Below are positions 16,851-49,089 of a stretch of 64,000 nucleotides of DNA, in pieces. Made by a program: the position numbers and the translations under genes. Source of the stretch: Candidatus Latescibacterota bacterium (GTDB lineage Bacteria > Latescibacterota > UBA2968); NCBI GenBank assembly GCA_965116885.1, contig OZ220741.1:1280001-1344000 (forward strand). Reading direction: 5' to 3'. Each line of letters starts with the position of its first letter. Position 1 is the stretch's first letter. The notes beneath the pieces were generated by a model that saw nothing but the letters and a program-made list of their open reading frames with translations, searched no databases and had not been told where the DNA came from.

Positions 16851-16882
16851 AATCCGCTCCATTTATACATGAAAATTTATCC

Positions 16883-17509: not shown

Positions 17510-17630
17510 CTCCTGTAAATAATTGTTGAGATAGCCTACCTGACGACATAGAACAATAATAAACATATTTACAAAAAAATAGAAAATTCTCCGTCAACCT
17601 GATATACCTATCAACAGCAGATTTCCCCAA

Positions 17631-17990: not shown

Positions 17991-18040
17991 AATTGTGAGT
18001 AAATCACGACCTGGACATCTAAAACAGGAATATAATGAAT

Positions 18041-18075
18041 AAAAATAAACCCCAGACGCTCATAGAGATCTGGGG
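18041..18075 (-). terminator. Probable dnaA terminator
   Basis: CCCCAGA/TCTGGGG stem preceded by an A-rich run on the + strand. Confidence 0.55.
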
Positions 18076-18122
18076 CATATATTTAAATTTATAGGCTTAT
18101 GCCATTACTCGGCTATTACTCC

Positions 18123-19505: not shown

Positions 19506-19870
19506 AGTGCGAATATCCGTCTATGGCTCGCAAACACGCGCCAACTAAGGGAAATACCATGAGAATGGTTAAAGCGTTGGAAACCGTTGTCTGAGGAATC
19601 CGAATATAAGGGAGGTTGATTTCGGTTCAGAACCCGAAGGCTCTCAATTGAGGGGGGAAATTGAAAGTATTCTGAAATTTTGAAATCGAAATATTTCGGT
19701 TATTCTTAACAGCAGACTACGGTGGGGGAATCCACTTCAAAAGTGAATTTCAAAAGATTCTGAAAGCTAATCGAAAACTAAGCAATGAAATAAATGGTGT
19801 CAAGAGTGTTTTGATGGAAGACAAATAATAATAAACATTTGAAAAATAGTAAAATAATAGTAAAAAGTCA

Positions 19871-19905
19871 ATATATAGTGTACAAAAAAAGTGTACACTA
19901 TATAT
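19871..19905. promoter_or_regulatory. Perfect 14-bp inverted repeat in the dnaA/rpmH divergent promoter region
   Basis: ATATATAGTGTACA-N7-TGTACACTATATAT. Confidence 0.55.
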
Positions 19906-20030
19906 AGTAGTGTAACCAGAGGACTGTCCTATCAAAATGAAATCCCTTGACAAAGCAGATATGCACCTCTATATTCCAAACTCTCTGTCGATATAGATAA
20001 TTGAAATTTTTGTAGATACGGAGTAGTTTG

Positions 20031-20165
20031 ATGAAACGCACGTTTCAACCACATAATCGCAAGCGCAAAAATAAACACGGTTTTCGCGCTCGCATGAGTT
20101 CTCCCGGTGGTCGCCATGTGCTGAATAGACGGCGCCGAAAGGGTCGCAGGCAGCTATCGCACTGA
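20031..20165 (+). CDS. rpmH: 50S ribosomal protein L34 (not in ORF track)
   Basis: Manual translation [44 protein letters not shown]. Confidence 0.97.
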
Positions 20166-20179
20166 TATGTAGGTGTGTT

Positions 20180-20509
20180 ATGGGAACACCCAACCTACGC
20201 ATTCGACGCGAAATTGCGAAAATTCGACAGCACGGTCAAATTTTTCGTGGGCGTTGGGTTCATGTTCGGATTGGTACTTCCGAGATGGATCTAACGCTCA
20301 TTTCAATTCGGAAAAAATTTGGAAACGCAGTTCGGCGCAATCGCATCCGCCGACAAGTACGAGCAATATGTTCCGAACTAATACCTTCAGGTCATCCTCA
20401 CTGTCTGATGAGTATCTCTATAGGAGATCACGCTTCCGGTGTCTCTTATGGCCAACTCCGTCTTGAACTACACCTCGCATTTCAAAAACTCGGTCTTATC
20501 GACCCCTGA
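20180..20509 (+). CDS. rnpA: Ribonuclease P protein component
   Basis: KKFGNAVRRNRIRR RNR motif; follows rpmH. Confidence 0.9.
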   Translation: MGTPNLRIRREIAKIRQHGQIFRGRWVHVRIGTSEMDLTLISIRKKFGNAVRRNRIRRQVRAICSELIPSGHPHCLMSISIGDHASGVSYGQLRLELHLAFQKLGLIDP

Positions 20510-20562
20510 TTCGTTTTTGCAATCCCTTCCTTTATTATTCTCTGTTTAGAAAGACTGAATTT

Positions 20563-22254: not shown

Positions 22255-22266
22255 CAGGTTATTTCT

Positions 22267-23613
22267 ATGTCCGACAACGATACCATCGCGGCAATTGCCA
22301 CAGCTCCTGGTGAAGGTGCGATTGGCATCATCAGACTCAGCGGACCAGATGCCATCTCAATTGGAGAACGTCTCTTCAGAGGTCAAACCCCCCTCCACAA
22401 CCTTCCTTCTCGCCAACTATCTTTTGGACATCTCTATATTCAGGGCCGGAATTTTGACAAAGTTCTGGTCTCGGTCATGCGTGCGCCTAATTCTTTTACC
22501 GGTGACGATACAGTTGAATTTAACTGCCATGGGGGACCTTTTCTACTCAGACGGATTATGGAAGCAGTATTTCAAGAAGGTGGTCGGCCGGCTGGTCCAG
22601 GAGAATTCACCAGGCGAGCTTTTCTCAACGGCAAGATAGGTCTCTCGCAGGCAGAAGCAGTTTCTGATATGATCACTGCGAAATCTGATCTGAGCCTCCA
22701 ATCTGCTTTTTTTCAACTCCGAGGTGGATTTCATCGCCGTTTCGAAAAAATGGCAGAATCTATTCGTCAGGCGGCCACGCTTCTCGAAGCTAATTTAGAT
22801 TTTTCTGAGGATGTAGAGATAGATGTCGAGATGATTAAGCCACCACTCTCTCAGGCTTTAAAGCATATTGAAGAGCTCATTCTTTCCTATGAACGCGGAA
22901 AAATTATTCGCGAAGGTGCCGTCGTCACCCTCGCTGGTCAACCCAATGTGGGAAAATCCAGTCTTCTCAACCGACTTCTCGAAGAAGACCGTGCGATTGT
23001 TACAGATATTCCCGGTACAACGCGAGACACAATTGAAGAGCAAATAGATCTCAATGGAATTGCTGTTACACTGGTTGACACAGCTGGTATTCGCGATACC
23101 GACGATCCGGTGGAAAGAGAGGGTACGCGTCGGTCTCAGCAATTCATAGACCGCGCAGCTATTGTTCTCTATATTGTAGATGGATCGCATCCACCACATT
23201 CCCAGGATCTGGACAACATCAGTCGTTATAATCAGGCGTTTCTTGTTCTCAATAAGAGCGATCTGGGTATTTACACTGGGTGGCAAAGCGTTCAGCCTTG
23301 CCATCCCCAAATCATTCTTTCAGCCAAAACGGGCGATGGCATCGCCACTTTGCGTGGTCGCCTTCGTGAGACTCTCCTGGGAAAGAGCGACTTGCCTGAC
23401 GAAATCGTCACCAAAGAACGGCATGTTCTCGCACTTCAGCAAGCTGCAACGGGACTCTCCCAGGCTCTGAAGAGCCTTGAATTCGGCAATCCGGGGGAAA
23501 TTATTGCCCTTGACCTCCGCGTTGCCCTGGACGCGCTTGCCGCAATCATTGGGAAGACTACCCCGGATGATGTTCTCGATCGAATCTTCCAAACCTTTTG
23601 CATCGGCAAATAA
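22267..23613 (+). CDS. mnmE: tRNA modification GTPase MnmE
   Basis: DTIAAIATA, GQPNVGKSS, GTTRD, DTAG, NKSD, C-terminal FCIGK. Confidence 0.97.
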   Translation: MSDNDTIAAIATAPGEGAIGIIRLSGPDAISIGERLFRGQTPLHNLPSRQLSFGHLYIQGRNFDKVLVSVMRAPNSFTGDDTVEFNCHGGPFLLRRIMEAVFQEGGRPAGPGEFTRRAFLNGKIGLSQAEAVSDMITAKSDLSLQSAFFQLRGGFHRRFEKMAESIRQAATLLEANLDFSEDVEIDVEMIKPPLSQALKHIEELILSYERGKIIREGAVVTLAGQPNVGKSSLLNRLLEEDRAIVTDIPGTTRDTIEEQIDLNGIAVTLVDTAGIRDTDDPVEREGTRRSQQFIDRAAIVLYIVDGSHPPHSQDLDNISRYNQAFLVLNKSDLGIYTGWQSVQPCHPQIILSAKTGDGIATLRGRLRETLLGKSDLPDEIVTKERHVLALQQAATGLSQALKSLEFGNPGEIIALDLRVALDALAAIIGKTTPDDVLDRIFQTFCIGK

Positions 23614-23636
23614 TGTTGAACTGGGATACGACCAGT
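23613..23636. repeat. Left arm of 24-bp perfect inverted repeat flanking rsmG
   Basis: ATGTTGAACTGGGATACGACCAGT is the exact reverse complement of 24513-24536. Confidence 0.85.
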
Positions 23637-23643
23637 GGTAAAA

Positions 23644-23659
23644 TGTTCCACGTGAAACA
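23644..23659. other. parS centromere site
   Basis: TGTTCCACGTGAAACA matches the TGTTNCACGTGAAACA consensus. Confidence 0.9.
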
Positions 23660-23754
23660 TCGGTGAGACGTGAAACGTAAGAGGGGTTGGGCGGTCGTCT
23701 CACCTTTTACGTCTTACGTCTTACTTCTTACCGCCTTTTCTAAAGGTATATTCA

Positions 23755-24393
23755 ATGGAACCAGATGAAGCCATTGAGCTTGCGGAGAGATCCTTTGGCC
23801 TTTCTTTTTCCAATAAACAGGTCGTGTTGCTCAAGCAATATGTCGATTTGCTTACCGATTGGTCGGGTCGCGTTCGATTGATCTCCCGCAATGATCGCAA
23901 TTTTATATGGGAACGTCATATTCTCGATTGTCTCTCGCTGGTACCGCACCTTCCAGGAAATGGACCTCTCCTGGATTTGGGATCAGGTGCTGGTCTGCCG
24001 GGTATTGTGATCAAGATTATGAGGTCCGATCTCGAAGTTTATCTCCTTGAACCCACCCGCATGAAAAACCTCTTTCTCCAGGAAGCTATTACCGCGCTCG
24101 GCCTTCAAAGTGCTTTCGCTATCAGATATCGCGCTGAGCACCTTGTTGAAGATTCCTCGTTCGCTGGTAAATTTCTGATTGGTACAGCCCGTGCAGTTGC
24201 ACGACTGCCCCAACTTTGGAATTGGACAGAACCTTTTCTCGCCTCTCAGGGAGTACTTATTTCAATGAAAGGCCCAGATTCTCTCTGCGAGTTCACAGGC
24301 GGTGTTCCACGCGATATCTATGCTACTGAAACCTCTTTGACCTTACCCATTACACGACGAAGACGGTCTTTTGTCTTTCTTAAAAGACGTTGA
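23755..24393 (+). CDS. rsmG: 16S rRNA m7G527 methyltransferase RsmG
   Basis: RHILDCL, LDLGSGAGLPGI, ARAVA. Confidence 0.92.
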   Translation: MEPDEAIELAERSFGLSFSNKQVVLLKQYVDLLTDWSGRVRLISRNDRNFIWERHILDCLSLVPHLPGNGPLLDLGSGAGLPGIVIKIMRSDLEVYLLEPTRMKNLFLQEAITALGLQSAFAIRYRAEHLVEDSSFAGKFLIGTARAVARLPQLWNWTEPFLASQGVLISMKGPDSLCEFTGGVPRDIYATETSLTLPITRRRRSFVFLKRR

Positions 24394-31929: not shown

Positions 31930-33225
31930 ATGATGTCATTGCCCAATATTATTTTTATTCTTTGTGATGATATCGGCTATGGCGATCTGGGTTGTTATGG
32001 GCAAAAGGTTATTCCCACCCCCCGCTTGGATCAGCTTGCGTCGGAATCTATGCGGTTCACGCAGTGTTATACCGGGTCTCCTATCTGCGCGCCATCTCGG
32101 GCGGTTTTGATGACGGGTTTGCACAGTGGACACACGAGGGTGCGCGACAATATGGGCATTGTGGGCGGCGTTGGAGAGCAGAAACGGGTGCCGCTCGAGC
32201 CGGAGGATTTTACGGTTGCCGAGATGCTCAAGGAGGCGGGATATACCACTGGGATAACTGGCAAATGGGGATTGGGTGAACCCGATACGACGGGTATTCC
32301 CACCCGCAAGGGATTTGATGAATGGTTTGGCTATCTCAACCAGCGCAACGCGCATTCGTATTATCCGCCTTTTTTGTGGCACAACGAAGAGAAGGTCATT
32401 CTCAAAGGCAATCTGGACGGCCAGGAGAACGACTATTCTCACGATATGATTTTTGACTTTGCCCGTGACTTCATTCGCAACAATAGCGATGGTCCGTTTT
32501 TTTTGTACCTGCCGTGGACATTGCCGCACGGAAGATATGAGATTCCCGATGCGAGTGCCTGGGACGATAAACCCTGGACAGATGACGAGAAAGTTTATGC
32601 GGCGATGATTACAAAAATTGATACGCAAGTTGGACAGATTGCGGATTTGTTGCGCGAACTGGGGATAAAGGATAATACGCTTTTGTTTTTTGGTTCTGAC
32701 CATGGCGCCGCGCGCCGGTGGGAACCATTTGGCAGTTGTGGTGCTTTGCGCGGGCAAAAAGGGACGATGTATGAAGGCGGTTTGCGCACGCCGATGATTG
32801 TGCATTGGCCAGCGCGTATTCCGGCAGGTACTGTGAGCGATCAGGTGTGGTATTATGCCGATTTTATGCCTACGGTTGCAGACGCGATCGGCATGGATGC
32901 GCCAGATAATATGGATGGCGTGAGCATATTGCCGACGCTTTTGGGTGAATCACAGGATCTTGGGGAGCGCTTTTTGTACTGGGAGCGCTTTGGTGGAGGA
33001 TTCAAACAGGCTGTGCGCTGGAAAAACTGGAAGGCCGTGCGCAATCCATCGCCGCGGTTGCTCGACGAACCGCTTGAGTTGTACGATCTGGACGGGGATA
33101 TTGGCGAGGAAAACGATGTCGCTGCGGATCATCCGGATGTGATCGCCGAAATCGAGAGCTTTATGAAAGGTGCGCGGACAGACTCCCCTAATTGGCCGAT
33201 TGGCGTCAAGGGGTCTCAGGGGTGA
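31930..33225 (+). CDS. Arylsulfatase
   Basis: DDIGYGD, CAPSR, GKWGLG, YEGGLRTP. Confidence 0.92.
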   Translation: MMSLPNIIFILCDDIGYGDLGCYGQKVIPTPRLDQLASESMRFTQCYTGSPICAPSRAVLMTGLHSGHTRVRDNMGIVGGVGEQKRVPLEPEDFTVAEMLKEAGYTTGITGKWGLGEPDTTGIPTRKGFDEWFGYLNQRNAHSYYPPFLWHNEEKVILKGNLDGQENDYSHDMIFDFARDFIRNNSDGPFFLYLPWTLPHGRYEIPDASAWDDKPWTDDEKVYAAMITKIDTQVGQIADLLRELGIKDNTLLFFGSDHGAARRWEPFGSCGALRGQKGTMYEGGLRTPMIVHWPARIPAGTVSDQVWYYADFMPTVADAIGMDAPDNMDGVSILPTLLGESQDLGERFLYWERFGGGFKQAVRWKNWKAVRNPSPRLLDEPLELYDLDGDIGEENDVAADHPDVIAEIESFMKGARTDSPNWPIGVKGSQG

Positions 33226-33401
33226 TTTCTTTATTCGGTTAATTTCGATCAGGCCTTCCGGCAATATGAAATGACAAATGACAGGTGTCATTGCGGCATG
33301 ATTTTAGCCGCAATCCAGCTATCATTTTTAAAAAGAGTAAAACGCTTTGGTGTTATGCCAGAGCGTTTTTGTTTTCTGTTTACAAAGTTGACGATTCAGT
33401 A

Positions 33402-35153
33402 CTATTGGATACGTGCCTTAATTTCCTTCCAAATTACGTTTGCCCGTGCCTTAAGGTACTCCTCATATCGGTCCTTAACCGTCCCGTTATCCTCTATAAG
33501 TTCGTCATAAGGGACAAAATGGGACTCAATACGGTTCTTCAACTGCTCATCCGTTAGCTGATCATTCTTTTTTATATCGTCCAAGTACAATGCAGGTTCT
33601 TTTCCGCCCAGTATGATGTTGGTGGATTTTCCAATCAGGACAGTATTGAGACCATGATTGATGAGATCAGAACCAACTATTCCACCGTCCACCAGCACCT
33701 TTCGTGGAAATACATGATGTTTGTCAAGTTGCTTTTCTTGCTCTAAATCTCTGATTTGGCCAAGTGTCAATCGTACTTCCGTAATCCAATCCAAGGAACG
33801 ACCATTATCGATGGTAAGGGCTATAATAGCCTTACCAGAAGAAGATGATCTTCCAATAGGCTTATTCTGATTACATAAGTCTTTCTCTCCAATCACCTGC
33901 GTGTCCTTAAATATGCGCGCATTTCTTTTTATTTTTTTTCCCTCTTTTATATCTTTAAGATTTTCTCGAAGATCTTTGAAGTCTTCGTATAAACTATCGT
34001 TCGCCTGTTTTTCATAGCGGTCTGAAAAGAAAGACCACCAAAGATACTTAGTTAGAAGTTTTCTAGCTGCTGCCTTATTAATTGTATGAATACTATCAAA
34101 TTCGTCGTATAAAGCGGCGATTACATAGACGGGTGGCATACGTGGAAGTATGCCTTTAGTTGGAACGCCGTTGTCTTCCAAAAACTGTAGTGTAGTGTCA
34201 AGATTAGACTCGACCATATCCGCGTTCTCTGTTCCGGTAATAAAAAGATAATCCAGTGCCTTGCGAAAGTTGTTGTCCTTGGGGGGCAGACCACCCTTCA
34301 AACACGCAATCTTCAATAGGCAATCGCCTATCTCTGGAATCCAGCGTTCTTTATCATTATAAAAGTAGTGTTTAATCCTATCACGCTCTTCGTGGAATCG
34401 CTGAATGCGTTCTCTCAGTTTAATGTCTGTTCTAATATCCAGTGCTTGTGCAACAGCTAAGTCAAATGCCGTAACTATGACTGACGAACTGTTTGTTTGA
34501 ACAAAAATAGAGGCAGCCTCATCAACACCAATCCCTTTGAACTTGGCGAACCAGATTTTGTACTCTTCCAGTGGTGTTTTTAATTCATTTTCTATAGAAC
34601 GTCGCAGATCTCCAGCACTTGAGGAATCTTTGGGTATGGCCTTTTCGCACCACTCTTCTACACCAGACTTTGAGTCGTGGGCTGGCGGGTCATAGAGAAT
34701 ACTCACGGGGATTACGTTGTCCGAGAACTCGTCTTGCGGATTAATATCTTCCTCAGAACTCTCTGGTCGATGTATCACCTCTTTTATTTTCATATTCTCG
34801 TTTTGCAAATCTTTAACTTTTATGTAAAATCGTCTTTTACCTTCCCCCATAAGTCCTTGCCAGAGTGATGTTAGCCGCTGTTGACCGTCCAAGATAAGAT
34901 TTTTGGCGTTCTCTATGTAGACGTCATTGCCTTGTATTTCTCGCTTACCGAATTCAGGTCCCGATTCGACCAGCAATATGGTCCCTGTTGTTTGTCCTCG
35001 AAGGACAGCTTTCAGAAAGCGTGCTGTTCGCATGTCGTCCCAGACGCGACTCCGCTGGAAATCGGTGAGGGCGAGTTCGCCCTCCGCCATTTCGTCCATC
35101 CAGTCTTTGACCGTCTTGTCTGTATAGTCTGGATTCATCATAGTGTTCTCCAA
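33402..35153 (-). CDS. GmrSD/SspE-like protein: DUF262 NTPase domain plus C-terminal HNH-like nuclease
   Basis: DFQRSRVW, LILDGQQRLTSL, F..TN; C-terminal DKHHVFP...N...N. Confidence 0.85.
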   Translation of the reverse strand: MENTMMNPDYTDKTVKDWMDEMAEGELALTDFQRSRVWDDMRTARFLKAVLRGQTTGTILLVESGPEFGKREIQGNDVYIENAKNLILDGQQRLTSLWQGLMGEGKRRFYIKVKDLQNENMKIKEVIHRPESSEEDINPQDEFSDNVIPVSILYDPPAHDSKSGVEEWCEKAIPKDSSSAGDLRRSIENELKTPLEEYKIWFAKFKGIGVDEAASIFVQTNSSSVIVTAFDLAVAQALDIRTDIKLRERIQRFHEERDRIKHYFYNDKERWIPEIGDCLLKIACLKGGLPPKDNNFRKALDYLFITGTENADMVESNLDTTLQFLEDNGVPTKGILPRMPPVYVIAALYDEFDSIHTINKAAARKLLTKYLWWSFFSDRYEKQANDSLYEDFKDLRENLKDIKEGKKIKRNARIFKDTQVIGEKDLCNQNKPIGRSSSSGKAIIALTIDNGRSLDWITEVRLTLGQIRDLEQEKQLDKHHVFPRKVLVDGGIVGSDLINHGLNTVLIGKSTNIILGGKEPALYLDDIKKNDQLTDEQLKNRIESHFVPYDELIEDNGTVKDRYEEYLKARANVIWKEIKARIQ

Positions 35154-36013
35154 ATACGATTAAGCAGATCGTCTACCAGTTCGCCAATCTCTTCGAACTC
35201 CAAGACGCCAATCTCTCTGGACGCAGCGATGTTGCTGAATCGGCGCAGTACTTTTGTCAATCTGCTGGCAGTTCGTAAAGGCGTTTTTGGTTTCGCCTTA
35301 AAGTGCTTCGCCAAGCTGTTGACGAAAGCGTCCTGTACATCTACTGATCCAAACACTGATCCTCTGGACACAATCATAGTGACCAGATTTTCCCAGTATT
35401 GCTGATTGGTTCGAACAACATCCAATAATGCTGCCCTATCCTCGACACCATCCCGTTTAAGGATCCGGGCAACTATTCGTTCCCGCCACCATGCACGTCC
35501 GAATGAAGGATTCACAAAGACGCTTTTGTTCCCACGTGCCCCAGGCAATCCGCTCATTCGTCTGATTACAGTTCTTACACAGTCATCAATGCCCTTAGCA
35601 TCCTGAGTAACAAGAGCTCGGTCAATTCTCTCGTCTCCACCCTCAGTCCTCCCTCCATTCGCTGCAAGCCAGTACGGTTCAATCCCATCTGATCTAATGT
35701 GTTGCAACGTGACTCCAGCCCAAAAGGAAATCCGGCAAGCTATCCTTGGAGGTACGTGAGACCATATTTCATACGCCGCTTGTTCCTGGTCTCTGGTCAG
35801 ATCCTTAAAAGATTGTTCAGTAAGGGGACCGGGAAATAGCTCCACGATTTCACCAGAAGTTTTGGAAACTTCTTTATCCATGAAGGACAAAAAATCTTCG
35901 CTGTCTTTCACTGCAACGAGGAAGTCACGCTGGTAGTCACTACCTTTTTCGGACAGCAGATTTTTATGCAGACGGGTGAATTCACCTTCATTGAGTTCCG
36001 CATAATTAGTCAT
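35138..36013 (-). CDS. Uncharacterised protein (DUF6339-like by recalled pattern)
   Basis: Coupled ORF in operon; FWAGVTL and GRAWW motifs; family call unverified. Confidence 0.55.
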   Translation of the reverse strand: MTNYAELNEGEFTRLHKNLLSEKGSDYQRDFLVAVKDSEDFLSFMDKEVSKTSGEIVELFPGPLTEQSFKDLTRDQEQAAYEIWSHVPPRIACRISFWAGVTLQHIRSDGIEPYWLAANGGRTEGGDERIDRALVTQDAKGIDDCVRTVIRRMSGLPGARGNKSVFVNPSFGRAWWRERIVARILKRDGVEDRAALLDVVRTNQQYWENLVTMIVSRGSVFGSVDVQDAFVNSLAKHFKAKPKTPLRTASRLTKVLRRFSNIAASREIGVLEFEEIGELVDDLLNRIWRTL

Positions 36014-36015
36014 CT

Positions 36016-36876
36016 TTATTCTATGTCTCCATCGGTAACTTTATGTGGATAAAGAGTCGTTGCTACGAATTCTGGATCAAAGTCAGCATTTGCCCAGTGT
36101 CCCAATTCTTTTGATTCCAGTGATTCTGTGAGCGCACGTAAATTGGGATAAGACTCCCACCCTTCTTCTCCATCGTCCTTGGCAAAATCCTTTTTCAAAT
36201 GGGCAAGAGCAGCTGAGACAATATGTGTCATGATATTCGCGCGTGATGTCTCTTGTCTGTGATGTTGTAGTTGGGCAAACAAATTTTGGGAAAGATAAAC
36301 CTTGAACTTGAAACCATCCAAGCTACTTGGTTCAACTTTGAACACACCGGATTCATAGTCTTCCCTCGGGCAGAAGTCCAGGAGTCCAAGGACACCGGAT
36401 TTTAGTGCGAATGTTGAACAGACCGCTACCCTCGAACCCTTTGGCAGTTGTAATGTCTTGCCGTTCCAGAGTGGGTTCACACCATCTGTTTCTGCATCAA
36501 TAGTGTGTTCGATGTCAGAGCCACTCACGATCATCGGGGTGAACAGAGGGTGTGCGCCGAGATCGTCAGGGTCCCATTCAATCATTTGCATCGGCACATC
36601 AGAAACATGGAGTTCTCTATATGCAGAGACAGGTGCTGCCACCGAGCAAACAAAACGAACCTTACCTGTATGGATCCAGTTTGTAATCAACCCTGCACCC
36701 TCAACTTCATGAGTCAGTGAAAATGACCGGCCCGGCTCTTTGTGTTCCAAACTAACCGAATAGACACCATTCTCAAAGCTACTGTTTCCCGCCTCCAAAA
36801 CAGGCCAAGAAAAGGCACGAGTCGCTGATGCCGGATCCGATGTCCGAATACTAATTTGCATTGCCATTTGAGGCAT
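36016..36876 (-). CDS. Uncharacterised protein of the defence-like operon
   Basis: 286-aa ORF overlapping the upstream ATPase gene; N-terminal WPVL motif, beta-rich N-half, helical C-terminus. Confidence 0.7.
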   Translation of the reverse strand: MPQMAMQISIRTSDPASATRAFSWPVLEAGNSSFENGVYSVSLEHKEPGRSFSLTHEVEGAGLITNWIHTGKVRFVCSVAAPVSAYRELHVSDVPMQMIEWDPDDLGAHPLFTPMIVSGSDIEHTIDAETDGVNPLWNGKTLQLPKGSRVAVCSTFALKSGVLGLLDFCPREDYESGVFKVEPSSLDGFKFKVYLSQNLFAQLQHHRQETSRANIMTHIVSAALAHLKKDFAKDDGEEGWESYPNLRALTESLESKELGHWANADFDPEFVATTLYPHKVTDGDIE

Positions 36877-38869
36877 TCCTTTCGCTTATAGATTGAGGTC
36901 GATGCAAATCTACTCTAAGCACGGGAATATCTACCGCGTTTTCGATATCTTCTGGCAGTTCGTATTCGACCACTAATTCATAATTTATCCCTGCCGATAG
37001 TCCGTGTATTCGTATAGACCTTCCATCGTCTTCCAACTTCCCGCTTGGTTCTGGTGTCCCGTTTGTGTTAAATTTAAACGATTTAAGTAGCACATTTTCA
37101 TCTGTCCAAATCCGATCACAGGTCGCATCTATGTTTTCGTCGATACGCAAAGTCAGATCCACTTCGTCAAATGATTCAATACACTCTAACGAAATGATAT
37201 GTTTCCCAGCACCATCAGGGATGACCGTTGAACGAAATGGTAGCGGACGAGATCTTGTTTGGCTATTCTTGCTGCTACTCTTTTTGTTATTTCCGCCTTT
37301 GTTCCCCTTGCCATCTCCTTCAGGTTCGTCTTTTTCTCCGTTTGGCGTAAATTGTCTTTGGCTAATACGCGGACGTTGAACCACAACGGGCGTACCCCAC
37401 ATCGAAAACTGTTCTGTGCCGGAACCGTTGCTGTTGCCCCCGGTTGCTACCCAGAGATAATCGTCTGGTGTGTATTCCTCAGTCCCGATTTCAGGTATTT
37501 GATCTCTGATTTTATCCGCAATTTGTTGTATTGCCGCTTTTAAGCGTTCTTTTTCTTCTCGTGACAAACGGCTGAATGCGAGTTCATCGTGCATTGGCCC
37601 TTCAGCATTGCGGACAAGGCGGTGCAAGTTTTTGCCTTCTTTCGCATTTAATGCCAGAACTGCGTGAAATGGCTGTCGGTTGGTAAAGTCTGCCCGACTC
37701 AAGCCTTGGATATAGTCGGTGATCCACATGCCATTGCGGAAAAGGTCAACACGAGTGTTTTCTGTTGGCGAGGGTATGAGCAATCTGACATCTACATCTC
37801 CCTCTTTAGTGTGGACCAGGAGCCGTTCTCCCTGTAGCGTCTGATAAGCTGAGTAGGCGTTTTGTCCAGATGGCCTAAGTCCTTCAAAAAAAGAGCCTTT
37901 TCTGTCCGCCCGAACGCGGTCCTTGCTTTGCTCCAAGACATCACTAAGGGTATCTTTGTTAAGTCGCTGGATGCCGCGTTTTTTATTTTTTTTATGTTTC
38001 TCCTCCACCTCTACGACGAGGTGCCCTTGAAAGATGGCGGCATTGAAGTTATAAGCCGCAACCCTTGACACGATATCCCAAAGCGATAAATCGTTATCAT
38101 CGCCGAAGTAGTTGAATGCAGGGATCACAACGATAGAGCCATGTCCCCACTTAGATTTAATTTTTCTTAGATCCGCGGCAATTCCTTTAGGGATATATCT
38201 ATCACTTATAAAGTTGTAAATTTTGCCATCTTTCCCACTCCCAAATCCTTTGACGAGATAGCCTTGTGCTGCATACGGAAGTTTCTTACCCGAACGACTC
38301 GCTAATACCGCGCATCCTGAAACGGTGCGTTGACCGCTTTTCAAAACTCCTCCATAAAGCACATATCGGAGAGCAGATGCAGGTATTGATGCAAGATGCC
38401 CAACCCCATAGGAACCGGATGCCTCTGTAGATTTGGCACTCGCCCCTTGGCCAAGTAGCGAAGTCATTCTCTTCTCGTCGAGACCGATCCCATTATCAAG
38501 AATCGACAAGGAATAGTGCTTATTTTTTTTCAGCCGATCCAGTGCATCTTCAATGTTATTGACCACTTGTTGCGCCGCGTCGGATAACTCACCGTTCCCT
38601 TTGTGATCTTCGACTGCTGCTCTAAAGTGTTCCTCATATCCTTCAATGTCAGGGATGTCGCTTCTACCGATTTTAGTAACTCGAAATCGAACAACCGCTG
38701 TCTTCTCACCTGCCTCTACTGCGGCGTCCAAAGAGTTTTGAATAAGTTCTCTGACGATTCGAGATGGACGAAGGTCGTTAAACGATGCCGTGTCGAGTCC
38801 GGTGAATCCCGTCATTGATGTCGTCGAACCAAATTTTAGTTTTGGACCTCTTCTTTGTCTGCGTTTCAA
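36851..38869 (-). CDS. GHKL/HATPase-like ATPase domain protein
   Basis: N box RELIQNSLDA, G1 box DNGIGL, G2 box GSYGVG; TTG start 3 nt after the desulfurase stop. Confidence 0.8.
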   Translation of the reverse strand: MKRRQRRGPKLKFGSTTSMTGFTGLDTASFNDLRPSRIVRELIQNSLDAAVEAGEKTAVVRFRVTKIGRSDIPDIEGYEEHFRAAVEDHKGNGELSDAAQQVVNNIEDALDRLKKNKHYSLSILDNGIGLDEKRMTSLLGQGASAKSTEASGSYGVGHLASIPASALRYVLYGGVLKSGQRTVSGCAVLASRSGKKLPYAAQGYLVKGFGSGKDGKIYNFISDRYIPKGIAADLRKIKSKWGHGSIVVIPAFNYFGDDNDLSLWDIVSRVAAYNFNAAIFQGHLVVEVEEKHKKNKKRGIQRLNKDTLSDVLEQSKDRVRADRKGSFFEGLRPSGQNAYSAYQTLQGERLLVHTKEGDVDVRLLIPSPTENTRVDLFRNGMWITDYIQGLSRADFTNRQPFHAVLALNAKEGKNLHRLVRNAEGPMHDELAFSRLSREEKERLKAAIQQIADKIRDQIPEIGTEEYTPDDYLWVATGGNSNGSGTEQFSMWGTPVVVQRPRISQRQFTPNGEKDEPEGDGKGNKGGNNKKSSSKNSQTRSRPLPFRSTVIPDGAGKHIISLECIESFDEVDLTLRIDENIDATCDRIWTDENVLLKSFKFNTNGTPEPSGKLEDDGRSIRIHGLSAGINYELVVEYELPEDIENAVDIPVLRVDLHRPQSISERNASNGNAN

Positions 38870-38871
38870 TT

Positions 38872-40023
38872 TTAGGCTCCTATCATAGTTTTAAGCGCAC
38901 GGCACAGTATCTGACTCGCCGTGTCAACTTGTTCTTGTGTCGTGAAGCGCCCCATGCTAATCCGAACACCACTGGAAGCGATTTCTGGACCAACGCCAAG
39001 TGCCATCAGTACGTGGGATGGCTTCGCTGAACCCGTGGAACAAGCGGCTCCCGTCGAGATGGCAACCTTATCCGAGACCACATCTACAAGATGTTCTGCC
39101 AGTATTCCGGGAATACCTATGTTCAGGTTCCCCGGAATACGGCGTTCCTTATGGCCGAATATCAACAAATCGGGAAAGTTTTTAGACATCTTCGATTGGA
39201 GACGTGCGGTTAGGCTACATAGATGCTGGGCATCCTTGTAATACTCGGCATCAGCAATCTCACATGCCTCACCGAGTCCAACCACAAGCGGAGTCGCAAC
39301 AGTCCCTGGGCGTATTCCACGTTCTTGTGATCCGCCCGTTAGAACAGGTTCTATACTCAGATCGGGACGATTGCGAATATACAACGCGCCGACTCCATTG
39401 GGACCATAGATTTTGTGCCCAGAGAGACTCAGCAAATCAACCCCCAGTTCGTCCACATCAACCTTGATCCGACCTACCGCCTGAGTAGCGTCTGTATGGA
39501 TAATTGCTCCGACAGCGCGACAGCGCGCGGAGATTTCAGTAAGTGGCTGAATGACGCCAATCTCATTGTTGGCCAGCATCACTGATACCAGCAACGTCTT
39601 GTCACTTAGCGCGTTTTCCAACACGGACAGATCAAGTAAACCATCATTCAGAACAGGTAGGATTTCGACATCAAACCCATGGCAGCCGAGCCATTGAACA
39701 GTATCCAAAACGGCCGGATGCTCCGTCGCCAGTGTGATGATTTGTCTGCGTTTGTTGGATGCTGCCGCAATTCCACGCAACGCAAGATTGCAAGATTCAG
39801 TAGCCCCGGAAACAAAAATAATCTCATTGTCATCCGAACCAATGAGATTAGCCACTTGGCTTCGTGCAAACTCAACAGCTTCTCGCGCTTCCCATCCAAA
39901 GGTATGCCCTTCGGAGTGGGGGTTGCCAAAAGTCTCTGTCCAATAGGAGGCCATAGCATCCCGCACGCGGGGATCCAATGGAGTCGTCGCTTGGTAGTCC
40001 AGGTAAATTGGCATCTTCGACAC
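38872..40023 (-). CDS. Cysteine desulfurase (IscS/DndA-like)
   Basis: YLDYQATTP, NNEIG, DATQAVG, SGHKIYGP (PLP Lys), STGAACS (catalytic Cys); 383 aa without the IscS C-terminal tail. Confidence 0.93.
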   Translation of the reverse strand: MSKMPIYLDYQATTPLDPRVRDAMASYWTETFGNPHSEGHTFGWEAREAVEFARSQVANLIGSDDNEIIFVSGATESCNLALRGIAAASNKRRQIITLATEHPAVLDTVQWLGCHGFDVEILPVLNDGLLDLSVLENALSDKTLLVSVMLANNEIGVIQPLTEISARCRAVGAIIHTDATQAVGRIKVDVDELGVDLLSLSGHKIYGPNGVGALYIRNRPDLSIEPVLTGGSQERGIRPGTVATPLVVGLGEACEIADAEYYKDAQHLCSLTARLQSKMSKNFPDLLIFGHKERRIPGNLNIGIPGILAEHLVDVVSDKVAISTGAACSTGSAKPSHVLMALGVGPEIASSGVRISMGRFTTQEQVDTASQILCRALKTMIGA

Positions 40024-40029
40024 GTTGTA

Positions 40030-41379
40030 TTACTCAGTGCAATCGCAAGGCAGAACAGTATTGGCAAAACGAGAAAGATCATCCCCTGTCTTGCTGCTGT
40101 CAGCTAAAATATCGTAGGAAAACTCACTCGATGCACCGAAGAACCCGATGAAACTTGTCGCGTCAGGGTTCTTCCGCTCTCGATTCTCAAGTTCCAGGTC
40201 TCGCCCGTACTTGTTTTCCATACTCGCCCACCAATCAATTGTGCATGGCGTATCAATAGTCGGCCCGAAGTCTCTAATCTCGCGCTCTTTTTGATTTTCC
40301 ATTGCTTCGTGTATTTGCGTCAGATTGCCAATGCCTTTGAGAAAACAATAGACACAATTAGAAAGTGCGCCATTTGGAGAGAGTTCCAAACCCCAACCTT
40401 GTTGTTGCCAAAAATCATTAACATCTTCTCGCCCTATGTGCATCTTTGTAAATGGCATATAGACGTGTTCACCTTCGTATCCTTTGTTCGCGTGAGGATT
40501 GGATGACCTGGATTCTACTCTGGCGACTCGCAGTTGTTCGTCTCCACGCAAACCAATGAAAGCAACATATTCAATACCCCCATCGCCGAACCACGCTTTC
40601 TGCCCGAATACTTTGTCCTTAAGCAATGCGTTTTCAAAGGGACTCGCTGGTGCAGAGAAGTCACGATAATACTGTTTCGGACGGCAGGTTGGTCGGCTCA
40701 ATACGAATCTTTTCTTTTGAAGAAGCACATCTTTAGGCACACCGCCCCCATTACGTATATGGCTTTTGTGCATTTGGTCAGTGTCAACCTGCGATTCTGG
40801 AAGCCCATGTCCCAAACGCGGGATGCTTTTCTTGCTTGCAAACCAGTCTCGGAGAAACTGACGGGTAATTTCCAGCTTGAGGGATAGTGTGCAAACGCGG
40901 GTAAACTGATTCGGCAAATATGCTTTGTTTGAAAGCATTTCCTCAAAAGCCTCACCGCGCCACTGGAAGCCATCCGGATTAGTCTCTGAGAAGGGATGCT
41001 CATTGACTAGGCGGTAGGAGGAGATGCGGCGCCATTCTCCCTGCCGTGCGTCTTCGTAGGTTTGGAATTGGATGAAGAAGAAGGGGATACCGGCTGCTTC
41101 TACGCGCTTTTTGCACTCAGCGGCGAACTTGTAAGTCTCAGGGTGTTCGCACGAAGTGTTGTTGAATACCACTACATCACCGCGCTCTTGCTTAAGAAAT
41201 CCATTTTCTAATAAGGTGAAAAGTAGCATGCCACTGGAACGTCCTCCAGAAAACTTAACGACATGCGGGAGTTCTTGGTGGTATTTGGAACGATAACGAA
41301 AGGAGTAGGTTTTATCAGGATCATAGTGTTTGGATTTTTGTAATTTTCTCGATATTGAGAGTTTAGGAATAGCCTGCAT
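40030..41379 (-). CDS. PAPS-reductase / PP-loop adenine nucleotide alpha-hydrolase family protein with Cys clusters
   Basis: PP-loop FSGGRSSG, FNNTSCEHPETY, RVCTLSLK, IGLRGDE, NCVYCFLK, C-terminal PCDC. Confidence 0.85.
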   Translation of the reverse strand: MQAIPKLSISRKLQKSKHYDPDKTYSFRYRSKYHQELPHVVKFSGGRSSGMLLFTLLENGFLKQERGDVVVFNNTSCEHPETYKFAAECKKRVEAAGIPFFFIQFQTYEDARQGEWRRISSYRLVNEHPFSETNPDGFQWRGEAFEEMLSNKAYLPNQFTRVCTLSLKLEITRQFLRDWFASKKSIPRLGHGLPESQVDTDQMHKSHIRNGGGVPKDVLLQKKRFVLSRPTCRPKQYYRDFSAPASPFENALLKDKVFGQKAWFGDGGIEYVAFIGLRGDEQLRVARVESRSSNPHANKGYEGEHVYMPFTKMHIGREDVNDFWQQQGWGLELSPNGALSNCVYCFLKGIGNLTQIHEAMENQKEREIRDFGPTIDTPCTIDWWASMENKYGRDLELENRERKNPDATSFIGFFGASSEFSYDILADSSKTGDDLSRFANTVLPCDCTE

Positions 41380-41694
41380 TTATGCCCCCTTCTGAGAAAA
41401 TAAAACATTGAAAATCAAATAATTTAGAAGATTTTCTGATGGCACGATAAGACCATCTTTTAATAAGCTAATACCCAAATTAAAATGGGTCAAGATAAAA
41501 ACGTTCACAACATTCGGCTAAAGTCAAGCACCCTCAAACATGCAATCCGTGCTGTTTGCCAAAAATTAGCACGGTTTTTGAGCTTGTAAATTACCTTCTG
41601 TTGTGGTTACTTAATGTTCTTGGCGAAGGCGCATAGGAAGGTATCAGTCAAATGGACGAAGGTATGGAGGAACTTACCAAGAAGGGGACTTGTA

Positions 41695-41943
41695 ATGGCG
41701 ACATATTCAGAGATTGTAGAATGGGTCTATCGGAAGTATAGGCTGAAGATACACAAACCTTGCTACATTGCCCATTGTAAGGAATTGGCCGATCTCAATC
41801 CGAGCAGGGCGCCGAATCGTAAGGGAAACGGGAGGGTGTACCATTGTCCAGATAAGTTGCGCGAGCCGATCTTTGAGGCGTTCAAACACTTTAGGATGAT
41901 TCCTGATGACACGCAAATCCGCTTACCTTGGGGTGATGATTGA
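41695..41943 (+). CDS. Small basic hypothetical protein
   Basis: ATYSEI..V..KY...YIAHCK...CP......I.EAFKHF.MI; resembles, from memory, the C-terminal extension of some RlmD-type methyltransferases; GGGG RBS. Confidence 0.65.
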   Translation: MATYSEIVEWVYRKYRLKIHKPCYIAHCKELADLNPSRAPNRKGNGRVYHCPDKLREPIFEAFKHFRMIPDDTQIRLPWGDD

Positions 41944-42018: not shown

Positions 42019-42088
42019 GTTCATTAACATGACCCATCGAACCGTCGCCCGTATAGGGAATTAACGTGTGTTCGATTATTTTTACCCC

Positions 42089-42118
42089 CAGGGACGCCAA
42101 GTGCGTCCCTGTTTTTTT
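42089..42118 (+). terminator. Intrinsic terminator immediately upstream of the NYN gene RBS
   Basis: CAGGGACGC-CAAGT-GCGTCCCTG followed by T7. Confidence 0.8.
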
Positions 42119-42128
42119 GGAGAATACT

Positions 42129-42758
42129 ATGTCAGAAGACAGTTTAGCCACCCCTCCACGCTACCGAGTAAGGATATTCGTGGACTTTTGGAACTTCACG
42201 CTTTCGATGCGAGACACAGAGCAAGATTTCAGTACTGACTGGAAAAAGCTTGGCCCCGTGCTAACTCGTGTAGCTACAGAAACTGTCAGCTACGAGGCAA
42301 TCGGCGAATATCAGGGTCTGAATTTTTACGGCTCGTACGATCCGGCAAGTGAGAATGAGAAAAAAATGTACCAGTGGGTGACAACTGTCGTAAGTACGTT
42401 TCCGGGGGTCAATGTTTCGATCGTTCCAAGACAGAAGAGACGTTCTCTGCCAAAGTGCCCAATTTGCTACAATGAAATCGAGAAATGTCCATCTTGCAAC
42501 GCTGACATGAGAGGCACAGAAGAAAAGGGCATAGATGTGCGTATGGCTACGGCGATGATAAGCCTTGCTTGGGAGGACAATTACGATATTGCTGTACTGA
42601 TTTCGTCAGACCGGGATTTCGTGCCGGTGGCTGAATTTCTGGAAACGAAAGGTATCAAGGTCGTGCATGGCGCGTTTCCTCGAAAAAGTGCCCAACTTAC
42701 CCAAAAATGCTGGGCCAGTATTAACCTTGCCGATATTCGGGAGGAATTCCGTTATTGA
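42129..42758 (+). CDS. NYN (PIN-like) domain RNase with inserted Zn ribbon
   Basis: IFVDFWNF, EKGIDV, ISSDRDFVP, GIKV; CPIC...CPSC insertion. Confidence 0.88.
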   Translation: MSEDSLATPPRYRVRIFVDFWNFTLSMRDTEQDFSTDWKKLGPVLTRVATETVSYEAIGEYQGLNFYGSYDPASENEKKMYQWVTTVVSTFPGVNVSIVPRQKRRSLPKCPICYNEIEKCPSCNADMRGTEEKGIDVRMATAMISLAWEDNYDIAVLISSDRDFVPVAEFLETKGIKVVHGAFPRKSAQLTQKCWASINLADIREEFRY

Positions 42759-47584: not shown

Positions 47585-47607
47585 TGAGCGTTTTTCGCAG
47601 ATAAATG

Positions 47608-47631
47608 GTAGGGGCGAAAAACCTTTCGTCC
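47608..47631 (+). repeat. GTAG-type REP-like palindrome
   Basis: GTAGGGGCGAAAAACCTTTCGTCC. Confidence 0.6.
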
Positions 47632-47649
47632 GTTGTGAAGGGAGATCCC

Positions 47650-49089
47650 ATGAATATTGTCCTCATTATCATTGATACAATGCGCTATGACTATATTGGC
47701 GCGAATGGAAATGACTGGATTGAGACGCCCAATCTCGACCGCTTGGCCGCGCAATCGTGGTGTTTTGACCGCGCTTTTGCCGCCAGCTTTCCCACTATTC
47801 CCTATCGCACGGATGTTATGACCGGAAAATACGGCAGTCCTTTTCACACCTGGAAGCCCCTGCCTTTTGACACGCGGTCTCTTCCCTCTGTGCTGGGCGA
47901 AGCGGGATACGCGACACAGCTCATTCACGATACACCCCATCTCGTCAACGGTGGGCACGCATTTGATTATCCCTTTCACACGTGGACGTTTATTCGCGGC
48001 GCAGAAGTTGACCGCGCATGGATGGACGATGAAGCGCAGTGGCCGAGCAACTGGTGCAGAGATCCTTTATTCGATGTTTTGGGCGAAGATGCGGATCTGA
48101 CAAAACACAATTACACGTATGCCCGAACCAACCGGGGACGCACAAATTTGGACGACTGGAATTGCGCGAAGTTGTTCAATACGGCAGCCCAATTCTTGCG
48201 GGATAATGCGCGGCGGGAAAATTTCTTTCTCTGGATTGATTGCTTTGATCCCCACGAACCGTGGGACGTGCCCCCGGCTTTTATGTGCAAATACGACAAG
48301 ACCCCGGGTTACGATGGACGGCTTGACCCTCGCGCTTTTCAGGGGTCGCGCAACAATCCCAATTTGCCCGATGAAGCCAGGGCTCGCATGAAAGCGAGTT
48401 ACGCGGCCAAGGTCACCTGGATGGATCACTGCTTTGGGCGGTTTCTCGAAGCTTTTGACGCCACTGGTTTGAGCAAAAATACCGCGATTATCGTCGCGGG
48501 CGATCACGGTACTAATGTAGGTGAGCGCGGGCGCTTTGGCAAGTCCGCGCCTGTGTACGAGCAGGAAATCCACATTCCGCTCATTATCAAAACGCCCGAA
48601 GATGACGGGGGACGCAGTTCAGCTATTTTTCAACCCCAGGATTTTTTCGCTACTGTTGCCAACCTGGCCGGTGCGTCCGTTCCGGGGGACATAGACAGTC
48701 AGGATATCCTCACCGCCGCACGAGAAGGGAGTGCAGGGGTGCGACAACTCGCGCTGGCTGGCACTGCCCGGGGGTGGGCAAAACAGCGTGGGTTTTTCAC
48801 TGTTTTCGACCAGGATGGGTACCTGGAATGGCAACCCGAGGCAGCAGACTGCATGCTCACGCCTTATGGGTCGCTGGATAACACGGCGGCGGAACATCCC
48901 GACCGCGTCCAGAACCTGCATGCCGCTGGTCTTTCTGAACTCGAGCGCCGAGGTGCTGATCCCCTATTGATCGCTTGGCTCAAAAATGGCGCAGAGGGCC
49001 AGGTGCCTCAGAATTGCCGCCTTTTCGATGGCTGGCCCGGGCCAGAAGGGTTCCAGACCTATTTTGCGAGGGCTTATGGGGGGGCGTGA
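47650..49089 (+). CDS. Sulfatase/alkaline-phosphatase superfamily hydrolase with Thr at the nucleophile position
   Basis: IIDTMRYD, TPNLD, TIPYR, DPHEPW, GDHG; ATG 47650 behind GGAG. Confidence 0.85.
   Translation: MNIVLIIIDTMRYDYIGANGNDWIETPNLDRLAAQSWCFDRAFAASFPTIPYRTDVMTGKYGSPFHTWKPLPFDTRSLPSVLGEAGYATQLIHDTPHLVNGGHAFDYPFHTWTFIRGAEVDRAWMDDEAQWPSNWCRDPLFDVLGEDADLTKHNYTYARTNRGRTNLDDWNCAKLFNTAAQFLRDNARRENFFLWIDCFDPHEPWDVPPAFMCKYDKTPGYDGRLDPRAFQGSRNNPNLPDEARARMKASYAAKVTWMDHCFGRFLEAFDATGLSKNTAIIVAGDHGTNVGERGRFGKSAPVYEQEIHIPLIIKTPEDDGGRSSAIFQPQDFFATVANLAGASVPGDIDSQDILTAAREGSAGVRQLALAGTARGWAKQRGFFTVFDQDGYLEWQPEAADCMLTPYGSLDNTAAEHPDRVQNLHAAGLSELERRGADPLLIAWLKNGAEGQVPQNCRLFDGWPGPEGFQTYFARAYGGA

Follow-up and report, generated by a model that had tools for sequence, protein, structure and literature searches.

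In this study we focus on a run of six genes at positions 33402 to 41379, minus strand, of a 64,000-nucleotide stretch of DNA from a Candidatus Latescibacterota bacterium (GenBank assembly GCA_965116885.1, contig OZ220741.1, positions 1,280,001 to 1,344,000; hereafter the window). These genes form a cassette, probably a system for DNA marking and defence that is sulfur-based and of a kind not yet described, built from a pair of putative sulfur enzymes, a trio of genes headed by a GHKL ATPase, and a gene for a DUF262 protein. As judged by sequence comparison with 80 related loci, the cassette is a real gene unit that has spread horizontally among uncultured bacteria. Four phosphorothioate systems are established, namely dnd, ssp, tdp and BREX type 4, according to a 2026 study (PMC12914056) that, like the other papers cited here, was available to us in part.

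The genes are named g1 to g6 in their order along the minus strand. The first, g1 (40030-41379), encodes a 449-residue protein resembling 3'-phosphoadenosine 5'-phosphosulfate (PAPS) reductases, a PP-loop ATP-pyrophosphatase of a new family and a predicted sulfur-inserting enzyme, and g2 (38872-40023) encodes a 383-residue, pyridoxal phosphate-dependent cysteine desulfurase of the IscS/NifS/DndA/SspA type, the predicted sulfur donor. They are followed by the trio: g3 (36851-38869), for a 672-residue GHKL (Bergerat-fold) ATPase; g4 (36016-36876), for its 286-residue partner, which belongs to no named family; and g5 (35138-36013), for a 291-residue, all-helical protein, a probable divergent member of DUF6339, with many conserved arginine and tryptophan residues. 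The last gene, g6 (33402-35153), encodes a 583-residue protein with a DUF262 (ParB-like nucleoside triphosphatase, NTPase) domain and a C-terminal His-Me-finger-like motif, predicted to be a variable accessory nuclease. From g1 to g6 the successive junctions, computed from the coordinates, are a 6-nucleotide gap, a 2-nucleotide gap, a 26-nucleotide overlap, a 2-nucleotide gap and a 16-nucleotide overlap. A first-pass annotation, made by a model from the letters of the window, had described six co-directional genes with tiny gaps or overlaps and had proposed a new sulfur-based DNA modification and restriction system; the limits of the six open reading frames (ORFs) agree exactly with its own, and its description of the layout is borne out.

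Species-representative genomes, scanned with a profile of g1, gave 146 matched stretches, of which 80 loci were kept, all of them in metagenome-assembled genomes of uncultured bacteria, and their gene content and order were read by tblastn with the six window proteins. The ordered trio g3-g4-g5 lies on the strand of g1 in 70 of the 80 loci, across 12 phylum labels; g2 directly follows g1 in 68 loci and is missing next to g1 in the other 12, and the full order, with g1-g2 ahead of g3-g4-g5, is kept in 62. Among the ten loci without the ordered trio, L010 and L026 end at contig ends and L055 at the end of the retrieved stretch; five loci contain no trio gene at all (L037, L041, L064, L078 and L080), the last consisting of g1, g2 and a DUF262 gene only. 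Furthermore, the pairwise distances of g1 co-vary with those of g3, g4 and g5 (Mantel test, Spearman rho 0.61-0.69, with 0 of 500 permutations as high) in the 25 of the 80 loci that passed the length filters. The flanks vary from locus to locus, the closest relatives being flanked by housekeeping genes, and a quick maximum-likelihood tree of g1 (81 rows) requires phylum labels to change 29 times where 11 is the minimum. The best-supported small clade that contains the window (17 rows, support 99) brings together Pseudomonadota, Chloroflexota, Acidobacteriota, Latescibacterota and two more groups. The conserved order, the co-varying distances, the differing flanks and the label-mixing tree therefore describe one inherited unit that moves horizontally. 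The first-pass annotation had asked whether the gene order recurs elsewhere and whether the sulfur genes stay linked to the genes downstream of them; the order does recur, and for g3 to g5 the linkage holds in the 62 loci with the full arrangement.

The g1 tree also separates two subtypes. A clade of 18 loci (L038-L078) often lacks g2 and holds all eight loci in which a DUF262 gene stands between g2 and g3, this gene being distinct from g6, with which it shares 26-28% identity. In the other 62 loci a DUF262 gene occurs in 20, mostly after g5. Five of the locus names belong to what we take to be sponge-symbiont lineages (Poribacteria, Entotheonella, Poriferihabitaceae twice, and Porifericomitales).

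The sulfur pair consists of one protein that is readily classified and one that is not. The g2 product matches SspA (3.5e-145, residues 7-379) and DndA (3.9e-145) in PADLOC and Aminotran_5 in Pfam (9.3e-86); in NCBIfam it reaches 448 bits with IscS (TIGR02006) and 386.7 bits with DndA (TIGR03235), against a cut-off of 480 for the latter, and it stays under the equivalog cut-offs for IscS, NifS and DndA. All of 60 homologues keep its S-x-HK motif, and 55 of them the cysteine loop; on these matches g2 is classed as a cysteine desulfurase of the IscS/NifS/DndA/SspA type. The g1 product scores 18.9 bits with the Pfam PAPS_reduct model (PF01507), under the cut-off of 22.5 and over residues 39-95 only. 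In PADLOC it matches SspD (4.2e-9, residues 266-349 of 449) and BrxP (1e-5, residues 39-106), the two matched parts being separated by about 170 extra residues, and no DndC match was found for it at E ≤ 0.01. Among 20 members of the g1 family, all match SspD (best 6.6e-11) and BrxP (best 1.2e-6), and five match DndC (best 3.8e-4); no ThiI, MnmA, TtcA or TtuA model of Pfam or NCBIfam matches g1. In 76 g1 ORFs of the related loci, SGGxxS is kept in 73, and SNCxxC and a Cys-x-Cys at the extreme C-terminus in all 76. The first-pass pairing of a desulfurase with a PAPS-reductase-like protein hence needs qualification for its second half: the desulfurase and the PP-loop motif are there, but the PAPS_reduct score is below cut-off and the SspD match is partial.

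When 1.84 billion cluster representatives were searched with the g1 profile, relatives numbered 1,262 at a threshold of E ≤ 0.001, 602 of them at 1e-10 and 162 at 1e-30. None was found in the PDB, by sequence or by profile search, and plasmids gave three weak, partial matches only. Phages gave 67 records, none spanning 80% of the query and the best with 32% identity over 61% of it; in cultured material, g1 has its nearest relatives in the phage matches annotated as PAPS reductase or NinC-like (H20-H39), distant ones at about 30% identity over at most 61%. By these comparisons g1 represents a new PP-loop family for which there is no curated model and whose nearest neighbours are SspD, BrxP and DndC.

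Four proteins longer than 520 residues occur among the best 150 relatives of g1, and they bear on its substrate. One of them (P0292, 823 residues) has a C5 DNA methyltransferase that is complete, with a match to M.HhaI at 9.2e-35 and all of the motifs FxGxGG, PCQ, ENV and GNAV, joined to a full-length g1-like domain (35% identity, 2e-79) with the terminal Cys-x-Cys. In two others (P0280 and P0276) GNAV, the motif that ends C5 methylases, precedes the g1-like domain and the other three methylase motifs were not found; by eye, these two appear to carry the C-terminal half of a C5 methylase. The fourth (P0312) has no methylase motif, and a motif search detected no C5 methylase in the 80 related loci or the window. 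A natural fusion of a C5 DNA methyltransferase with a g1-like domain points to DNA as the substrate, as the first-pass annotation had supposed.

Within the trio, g3 matches HATPase_c_3 in Pfam (6.7e-5), its Pfam scores lying slightly under the cut-offs, and PDC-M33A in PADLOC (1.3e-36). The three Bergerat motifs are conserved in its homologues (ExxQNxxDA in 70 of 72, DxGxG in 71 of 72 and Gx[YF]GxG in 65 of 72), and the protein continues from the GHKL domain through a conserved middle region and a low-complexity linker to a C-terminal domain in which an acidic stretch, DENxDATCD, is conserved. Against the PDB its profile finds weak matches to Hsp90, MORC3 and MutL that are confined to the ATP-binding motifs, those to MORC3 and MutL being non-significant (E 0.13-0.8). 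The sole PADLOC match of g4 is PDC-M33B (2.8e-9), and Pfam and NCBIfam give none; the adjacent g3 and g4, which overlap by 26 nucleotides, make up the A and B pair by which PADLOC defines PDC-M33. A profile search with the g4 family, in which the 8,000 candidates sharing most words were scored, yielded 235 relatives; the 120 that were listed are all without a name. The g5 product scores 22.2 bits with DUF6339 against a cut-off of 23.2, and the same model matches 30 of 49 g5 relatives at E ≤ 0.01 (best 1.6e-9), so that we class g5, from these profile matches, as a probable, divergent DUF6339 protein.

The AlphaFold models of g4 and g5 are confident, with predicted local distance difference test (pLDDT) scores of 92.5 and 92.4 respectively. 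The g4 model is beta-rich towards the N-terminus and helical towards the C-terminus, and that of g5 is all-helical. At E ≤ 0.001 Foldseek returned no match for g4 in the PDB or BFVD and none for g5 in the PDB, the template modelling (TM) scores of both being at most 0.27; the fold check that had been suggested for these proteins hence gave good models with no relative in the PDB. Two leads from the Atlas were followed and dropped. For g4, the look-alikes were unnamed clusters only. For g5, scores of 0.88-0.90 suggested GAP1-N1/N2, a lead that was given up because the GAP1 models match 0 of 49 family members. Of what the first-pass annotation called a GHKL ATPase and two unknowns, the ATPase stands, its motifs being kept, and affiliations have been gained, by g3 and g4 with PDC-M33A and PDC-M33B and, probably, by g5 with DUF6339.

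The trio also exists in loci where the sulfur genes are absent. Searched with g3 by tblastn, plasmids gave 16 records (nine Ligilactobacillus, six Lactococcus and one Deinococcus), with an identity of 25-27% for the GHKL gene and neither g1 nor g2. On a Ligilactobacillus plasmid (L084, 4537-10497) one co-directional run comprises an S subunit, an N6 DNA methylase, a small ORF, the GHKL gene, a 287-residue gene and a DUF6339 gene, and HsdR is not listed within the 15 kilobases (kb) shown; from this gene order, the locus resembles a modification pair of type I-like form in which the trio stands in for a restriction subunit. The same arrangement, interrupted by a group II intron, is found in L083. 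On the Lactococcus plasmid pS127 (L082) the GHKL gene, a 286-residue gene and an annotated DUF6339 gene stand beside AlwI and AbiGI/GII genes, and a second Lactococcus plasmid has the same AlwI neighbourhood, with two adenine methylases, up to the end of the record. The Deinococcus trio (L081) has a C5 methylase and vsr nearby. Profile alignment with hhalign relates g3 to the Lactococcus and Ligilactobacillus plasmid GHKL genes with a probability of 99.5% each, and g4 to its Lactococcus and Ligilactobacillus counterparts with 96.7% and 78.5%, respectively. Taken together, the plasmid loci and the hhalign homology thus describe a module that is autonomous and is found alongside DNA-marking enzymes of different kinds, and by the same comparisons this module is related to PDC-M33, of which PADLOC holds the g3/g4 pair only, as an untested defence candidate. 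The earlier proposal that the GHKL gene and its unknown partners simply replace DndD and DndE, or SspB and SspC, is for this reason not supported as it stands.

The product of g6 matches GmrSD_N in Pfam well above the cut-off (1.1e-15, 58.8 bits against 33.2), and PDC-M55C (1.5e-10) and HEC-05 (2.1e-9) in PADLOC. Its family profile finds 7p9k in the PDB (6.9e-14, over the first ~100 residues only), which we take to be BrxU, and gives 0.73 for SspE (6jiv). Of 28 homologues, 25 contain DGQQR and 19 a C-terminal HH[VIL]FP, with H480, P483 and N503 invariant; no DUF1524 or HNH model of Pfam matches, and it is our own judgement that the HH[VIL]FP region is His-Me-like, as a prediction. PADLOC gave no SspE match for the window protein, and SspE is matched by three of 21 family members, at 2.1e-4 or weaker. 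A g6 homologue occurs in 29 of the 80 loci, just after g5 in 16 (including L001), between g2 and g3 in eight and elsewhere in five. The GmrSD-like nuclease of the first-pass annotation is hence retained as to its DUF262/GmrSD_N domain; it is not a fixed member of the cassette, and it is nearer to 7p9k than to SspE.

Neighbouring ORFs of the related loci were clustered and cluster representatives scanned, 17 proteins with Pfam and 10 with PADLOC. A DndB-family gene (PF14072, 6.3e-27) neighbours the cassette in eight loci, accompanied in seven of them by a gene for an unknown protein of about 170 residues. PbeA (4.8e-151) is found in eight loci, PbeC (6.5e-45) in five and a protein of about 160 residues in four. 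Neighbours of the DndB family or Pbe amount to 16 loci in all, L023 having both, and in 43 of the 80 loci at least one gene of the DUF262, DndB-family or PbeA/C kind is found no further than 10 kb away. Transposases are found near the cassette in six. We also scanned 100 immediate neighbours, hand-picked from 176 with already scanned clusters and part of the loci left out; ten had a PADLOC match at 1e-5, among others a type IV enzyme, a dGTPase, Cas9, additional DUF262 genes and a further GHKL protein of the PDC-M33A-like kind. Two loci have such a paralogous GHKL gene beside the cassette (L065, 3851-19217, and L046, 17980-20151), the copy of L065 with its own partners of about 282 and 293 residues. 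In L060 (4443-17732) Cas9 is directly upstream of g1, and four extra genes (PLD-like, helicase and MzaB-like among them) separate g2 from g3.

Compared with described systems, the window operon satisfies no Dnd, Ssp, BREX type 4 or Pbe definition, and in these profile comparisons no known system matches it as a whole. Indeed, the PADLOC check of the six proteins returned no full match to a Dnd, Ssp or BREX system, and the only part of the cassette known to PADLOC is the g3/g4 pair, as a candidate. Ssp comes close in the SspA match of g2, in SspD being the best defence-library match of g1, and in the operon's last gene, whose DUF262 product has a putative His-Me-like motif near its C-terminus; however, SspB (DUF4007) and SspC are lacking, a GHKL trio being present instead, g1 matches the SspD model in part only and g6 has no SspE match. 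The likeness to Dnd and Pbe lies in the DndA-like g2, in a PP-loop enzyme with conserved cysteines and in the DndB-family or Pbe genes near some related loci, whereas the window has no DndB, DndD or DndE in the six proteins and 23 flanking ORFs, and DndC is matched weakly by the five g1 family members mentioned above. The absence of DndB, DndD, DndE, SspB and SspC, which had been noticed from the letters, was thus reproduced by PADLOC for the six proteins, and so was that of a DNA methyltransferase by Pfam for the six proteins and the 23 flanking ORFs (15.5-50.8 kb), one of the latter being the rRNA methyltransferase GidB/RsmG.

BREX type 4 may follow the same logic, a PAPS-reductase-like enzyme working alongside a multi-protein, ATPase-centred engine for marking as well as defence, to go by the available parts of PMC12914056 and PMC12839542; however, the six proteins include no BrxC, PglZ, BrxL or DUF4007, and the ATPase is of the GHKL and not the P-loop type. 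Tdp offers the precedent of one PAPS-reductase-type protein that suffices for modification via an adenylated intermediate (cited in the part of PMC12914056 seen). With PDC-M33 the cassette shares a GHKL A protein and a B protein of about 289 residues, and the same three-gene order on Lactococcus and Ligilactobacillus plasmids, but the plasmid loci have neither g1 nor g2 and are distant. GmrSD-family type IV enzymes resemble g6 in the N-terminal DUF262 domain with DGQQR and in the 7p9k profile match, which covers the first ~100 residues, whereas g6 sits inside an operon with a modification pair. The MORC/paraMORC systems place a GHKL ATPase in an operon with DNA-modification genes, as far as PMC2292703 could be consulted, and g3 has its non-significant MORC3 and MutL matches; in contrast, a term search of the accessible text of that paper gave no PAPS, PP-loop, desulfurase or Dnd.

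Our literature search found no description of a system that combines a sulfur pair with a GHKL trio, nor any paper on PDC-M33 or DUF6339. Term searches in the accessible parts of PMC10853773, PMC12839542 and PMC2292703 gave no such system; the gene neighbourhoods in the supplements of PMC12914056 and PMC10853773 could hold it. The survey in PMC12914056 demanded, in the portion we had, a P-loop NTPase beside the PAPS-reductase gene, so that a GHKL-linked system could not be found that way.

We tentatively favour, with slightly less than even confidence, the reading of the cassette as a mobile, modular and modification-dependent defence system, in which the sulfur module would mark DNA, the GHKL trio would serve as surveillance and effector engine and g6 would be an optional nuclease. 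In this scheme g2 would take sulfur from cysteine as a persulfide and pass it to g1, where the likely acceptor is the invariant C-terminal Cys-x-Cys and SNCxxC is a likely Fe-S ligand pair. The cysteine dyad of DndC has been proposed as a sulfur acceptor (PMC10853773, in the part available), which fits the terminal Cys-x-Cys of g1. Using ATP, g1 would adenylate a site on the host's own DNA and swap oxygen for sulfur, the product being most likely a backbone phosphorothioate. The g3 protein should dimerise and clamp DNA, working with g4 and the Arg/Trp-rich g5, and the trio would form a self-contained surveillance and effector engine, pairable with different marking enzymes, that recognises the sulfur mark and acts against incoming DNA that lacks it; it may also load g1 on DNA, as in BREX. 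The g6 protein, where present, would add DNA cutting as an optional DUF262 and putative His-Me nuclease. The engine role of the trio is suggested by its modularity and the sulfur chemistry by that of the enzyme families; on these grounds we infer all of the chemistry, the way in which DNA is discriminated and the identity of the killing or cutting protein. What the comparisons themselves establish is which families the genes belong to, that their order is kept and that they are inherited together, that the modules can part, and that the g1 family is tied to DNA.

Several observations weigh against this reading. In g1 the Pfam score is under the cut-off and the SspD match spans about 84 of 449 residues. 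The trio-only contexts amount to five inspected loci, whose gene names are the annotation of the records themselves, and hhalign of g5 with the two plasmid DUF6339 genes was non-significant, the link of g5 to DUF6339 coming from the Pfam model alone. The fusion proteins come from a library that gives no genomic context and are possibly gene-calling read-throughs. No nuclease or effector domain was recognised in g3, g4 or g5, and the models of g4 and g5 have no PDB match. As to the surroundings, 90 of the 100 immediate neighbours have no PADLOC match at 1e-5, and the closest relatives sit among housekeeping genes, so that many loci lie outside obvious defence islands. Finally, all validated phosphorothioate systems except Tdp need an NTPase for synthesis (PMC12914056, as far as consulted), which fits a role of the trio in modification itself.

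Such a role is the core of a first alternative, which we hold to be possible, if somewhat unlikely: g1 to g5 would all be modification machinery, with the GHKL protein replacing a P-loop ATPase (DndD, SspC or BrxC) and g4 and g5 replacing DNA-binding or nicking partners (DndE or SspB). To the same limited degree we would then expect restriction to be carried out by variable neighbours only (DUF262 proteins, the Pbe module and others), loci with no such neighbour being orphan modification systems. The lack of a recognisable nuclease in the trio favours this alternative, as do the coupling of g1 with the trio in 70 of 80 loci, their co-evolution, and the candidate nuclease or regulator genes within 10 kb in 43 loci, with DUF262 embedded between g2 and g3 in eight. 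A need for both a PAPS-reductase-domain protein and an NTPase is the rule in phosphorothioate synthesis by dnd, ssp and brx (PMC12914056, available text), and Dnd modification modules are commonly decoupled from restriction (PMC10853773, likewise). However, TdpC suffices alone for phosphorothioation (PMC12914056, same part). Moreover, g1 occurs in five of the 80 loci where the trio is missing, the trio exists in loci where the sulfur genes are missing, and PADLOC treats PDC-M33A/B as a stand-alone defence candidate. In L084 the trio comes directly behind an annotated N6 methylase and S subunit, a pair that methylates with no need of an extra ATPase, and this context favours the engine reading.

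A second alternative keeps the marking and defence scheme as we propose it except for the chemistry of g1, which would thiolate a DNA base by adenylating a carbonyl oxygen of a flipped-out base, as PP-loop tRNA thiolases do. We consider it improbable. PP-loop enzymes with a desulfurase do make RNA thio-bases (ThiI, MnmA, Ncs6 and TtcA; PMC12914056, in the part seen). The g1 relative of P0292 is fused to a C5 cytosine methyltransferase, a base-flipping enzyme, with GNAV kept in two others, and the resemblance of g1 to SspD, BrxP and DndC is weak and partial, with the ~170 extra residues between the matched parts. In contrast, the only consistent library matches of g1 are DNA phosphorothioation enzymes, none of the tRNA thiolase models ThiI, MnmA, TtcA and TtuA of Pfam and NCBIfam matches it, and phosphorothioate-system genes (DndB-family and Pbe) neighbour 16 loci; to our knowledge, thio-bases are not known in bacterial DNA. 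A bolder form of this idea, to which we give just as little credence, would make g1 the founding member of a family that thiolates DNA bases and its product the first bacterial thio-base self-mark, read by the GHKL clamp and its two new-fold partners as a pluggable restriction engine for sulfur, N6-adenine or C5-cytosine modules; the cassette would have swept horizontally through many phyla of uncultured bacteria, several of them bearing the names of sponge-symbiont lineages.

It is very improbable that separate systems with no functional coupling, namely a sulfur pair whose substrate is tRNA or a metabolite, a PDC-M33-like system and a type IV restriction enzyme, have come to stand side by side loosely or by chance: the parts do occur alone (the trio on plasmids, g1 in five loci where the trio is absent, and DUF262 as a common stand-alone protein with PADLOC HEC-05 matches), but the order is kept in 62-70 of 80 loci under 12 phylum labels and in differing flanks, the junctions are tiny gaps or overlaps, the modules co-evolve and the methyltransferase fusion links g1 to DNA.

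In the window the operon is bounded downstream by a hairpin at 33339-33369 (14-base-pair stem with T runs on both sides), located by pattern match alone between the g6 stop and a convergent sulfatase gene, which is likely a bidirectional terminator closing the operon. Upstream of g1, the 234-nucleotide intergenic region at 41380-41613 is the expected place of the operon promoter, read on the minus strand; a sigma-70 scan found no site in it, and eight in the whole region against a mean of 11.8 in shuffles. Diverging from the operon just upstream are a 109-residue ORF of no family (41614-41943, plus strand) and an NYN-domain gene, a predicted RNase (42066-42758, plus strand). The first-pass annotation had seen in the block a composition distinct from its flanks, which was not confirmed: the guanine plus cytosine (GC) content ranges over 0.43-0.51 in the block (33-41 kb), the flanks have 0.45-0.53 at 28-33 kb and 0.43-0.52 at 41-47 kb, and GC skew alone flips sign at the block, because the coding strand changes. 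The scan of the window flanks detected no flanking repeats and no tRNA genes that would bound an island around the operon.

The surroundings are chromosomal, with dnaA, yidC, mnmE, rsmG, sulfatases and transporters. The replication-origin neighbourhood spans 16883-24393, with dnaA at 18123-19505 on the minus strand, then yidC, mnmE and rsmG, and with low GC (0.40-0.42 at 17-20 kb) adjoining dnaA. Three sulfatase genes lie within 34 kb (15492-16862, 31930-33225 and 47605-49089). Further on, a type I polyketide synthase of 3,354 residues is encoded on the minus strand at 51335-61399, in a block of about 60% GC against 43-53% in the rest of the window; its domain order, KS-AT-DH-MT-ER-KR-ACP-KS, presumably resembles that of the 'Sup' synthases of sponge symbionts.

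Since the 80 related loci are all from genomes of uncultured bacteria, the system is untouched by experiment. The methyltransferase fusion gives a direct handle on the substrate of g1, and the cassette would allow a clean test of whether the trio of GHKL, PDC-M33B and DUF6339 genes works as a portable module for restriction or surveillance, able to accept DNA marks of different kinds. If our reading is correct, the cassette would be a fifth sulfur-based DNA marking system, with a new enzyme family and a new ATPase engine that includes two proteins with no structural relative in the PDB.

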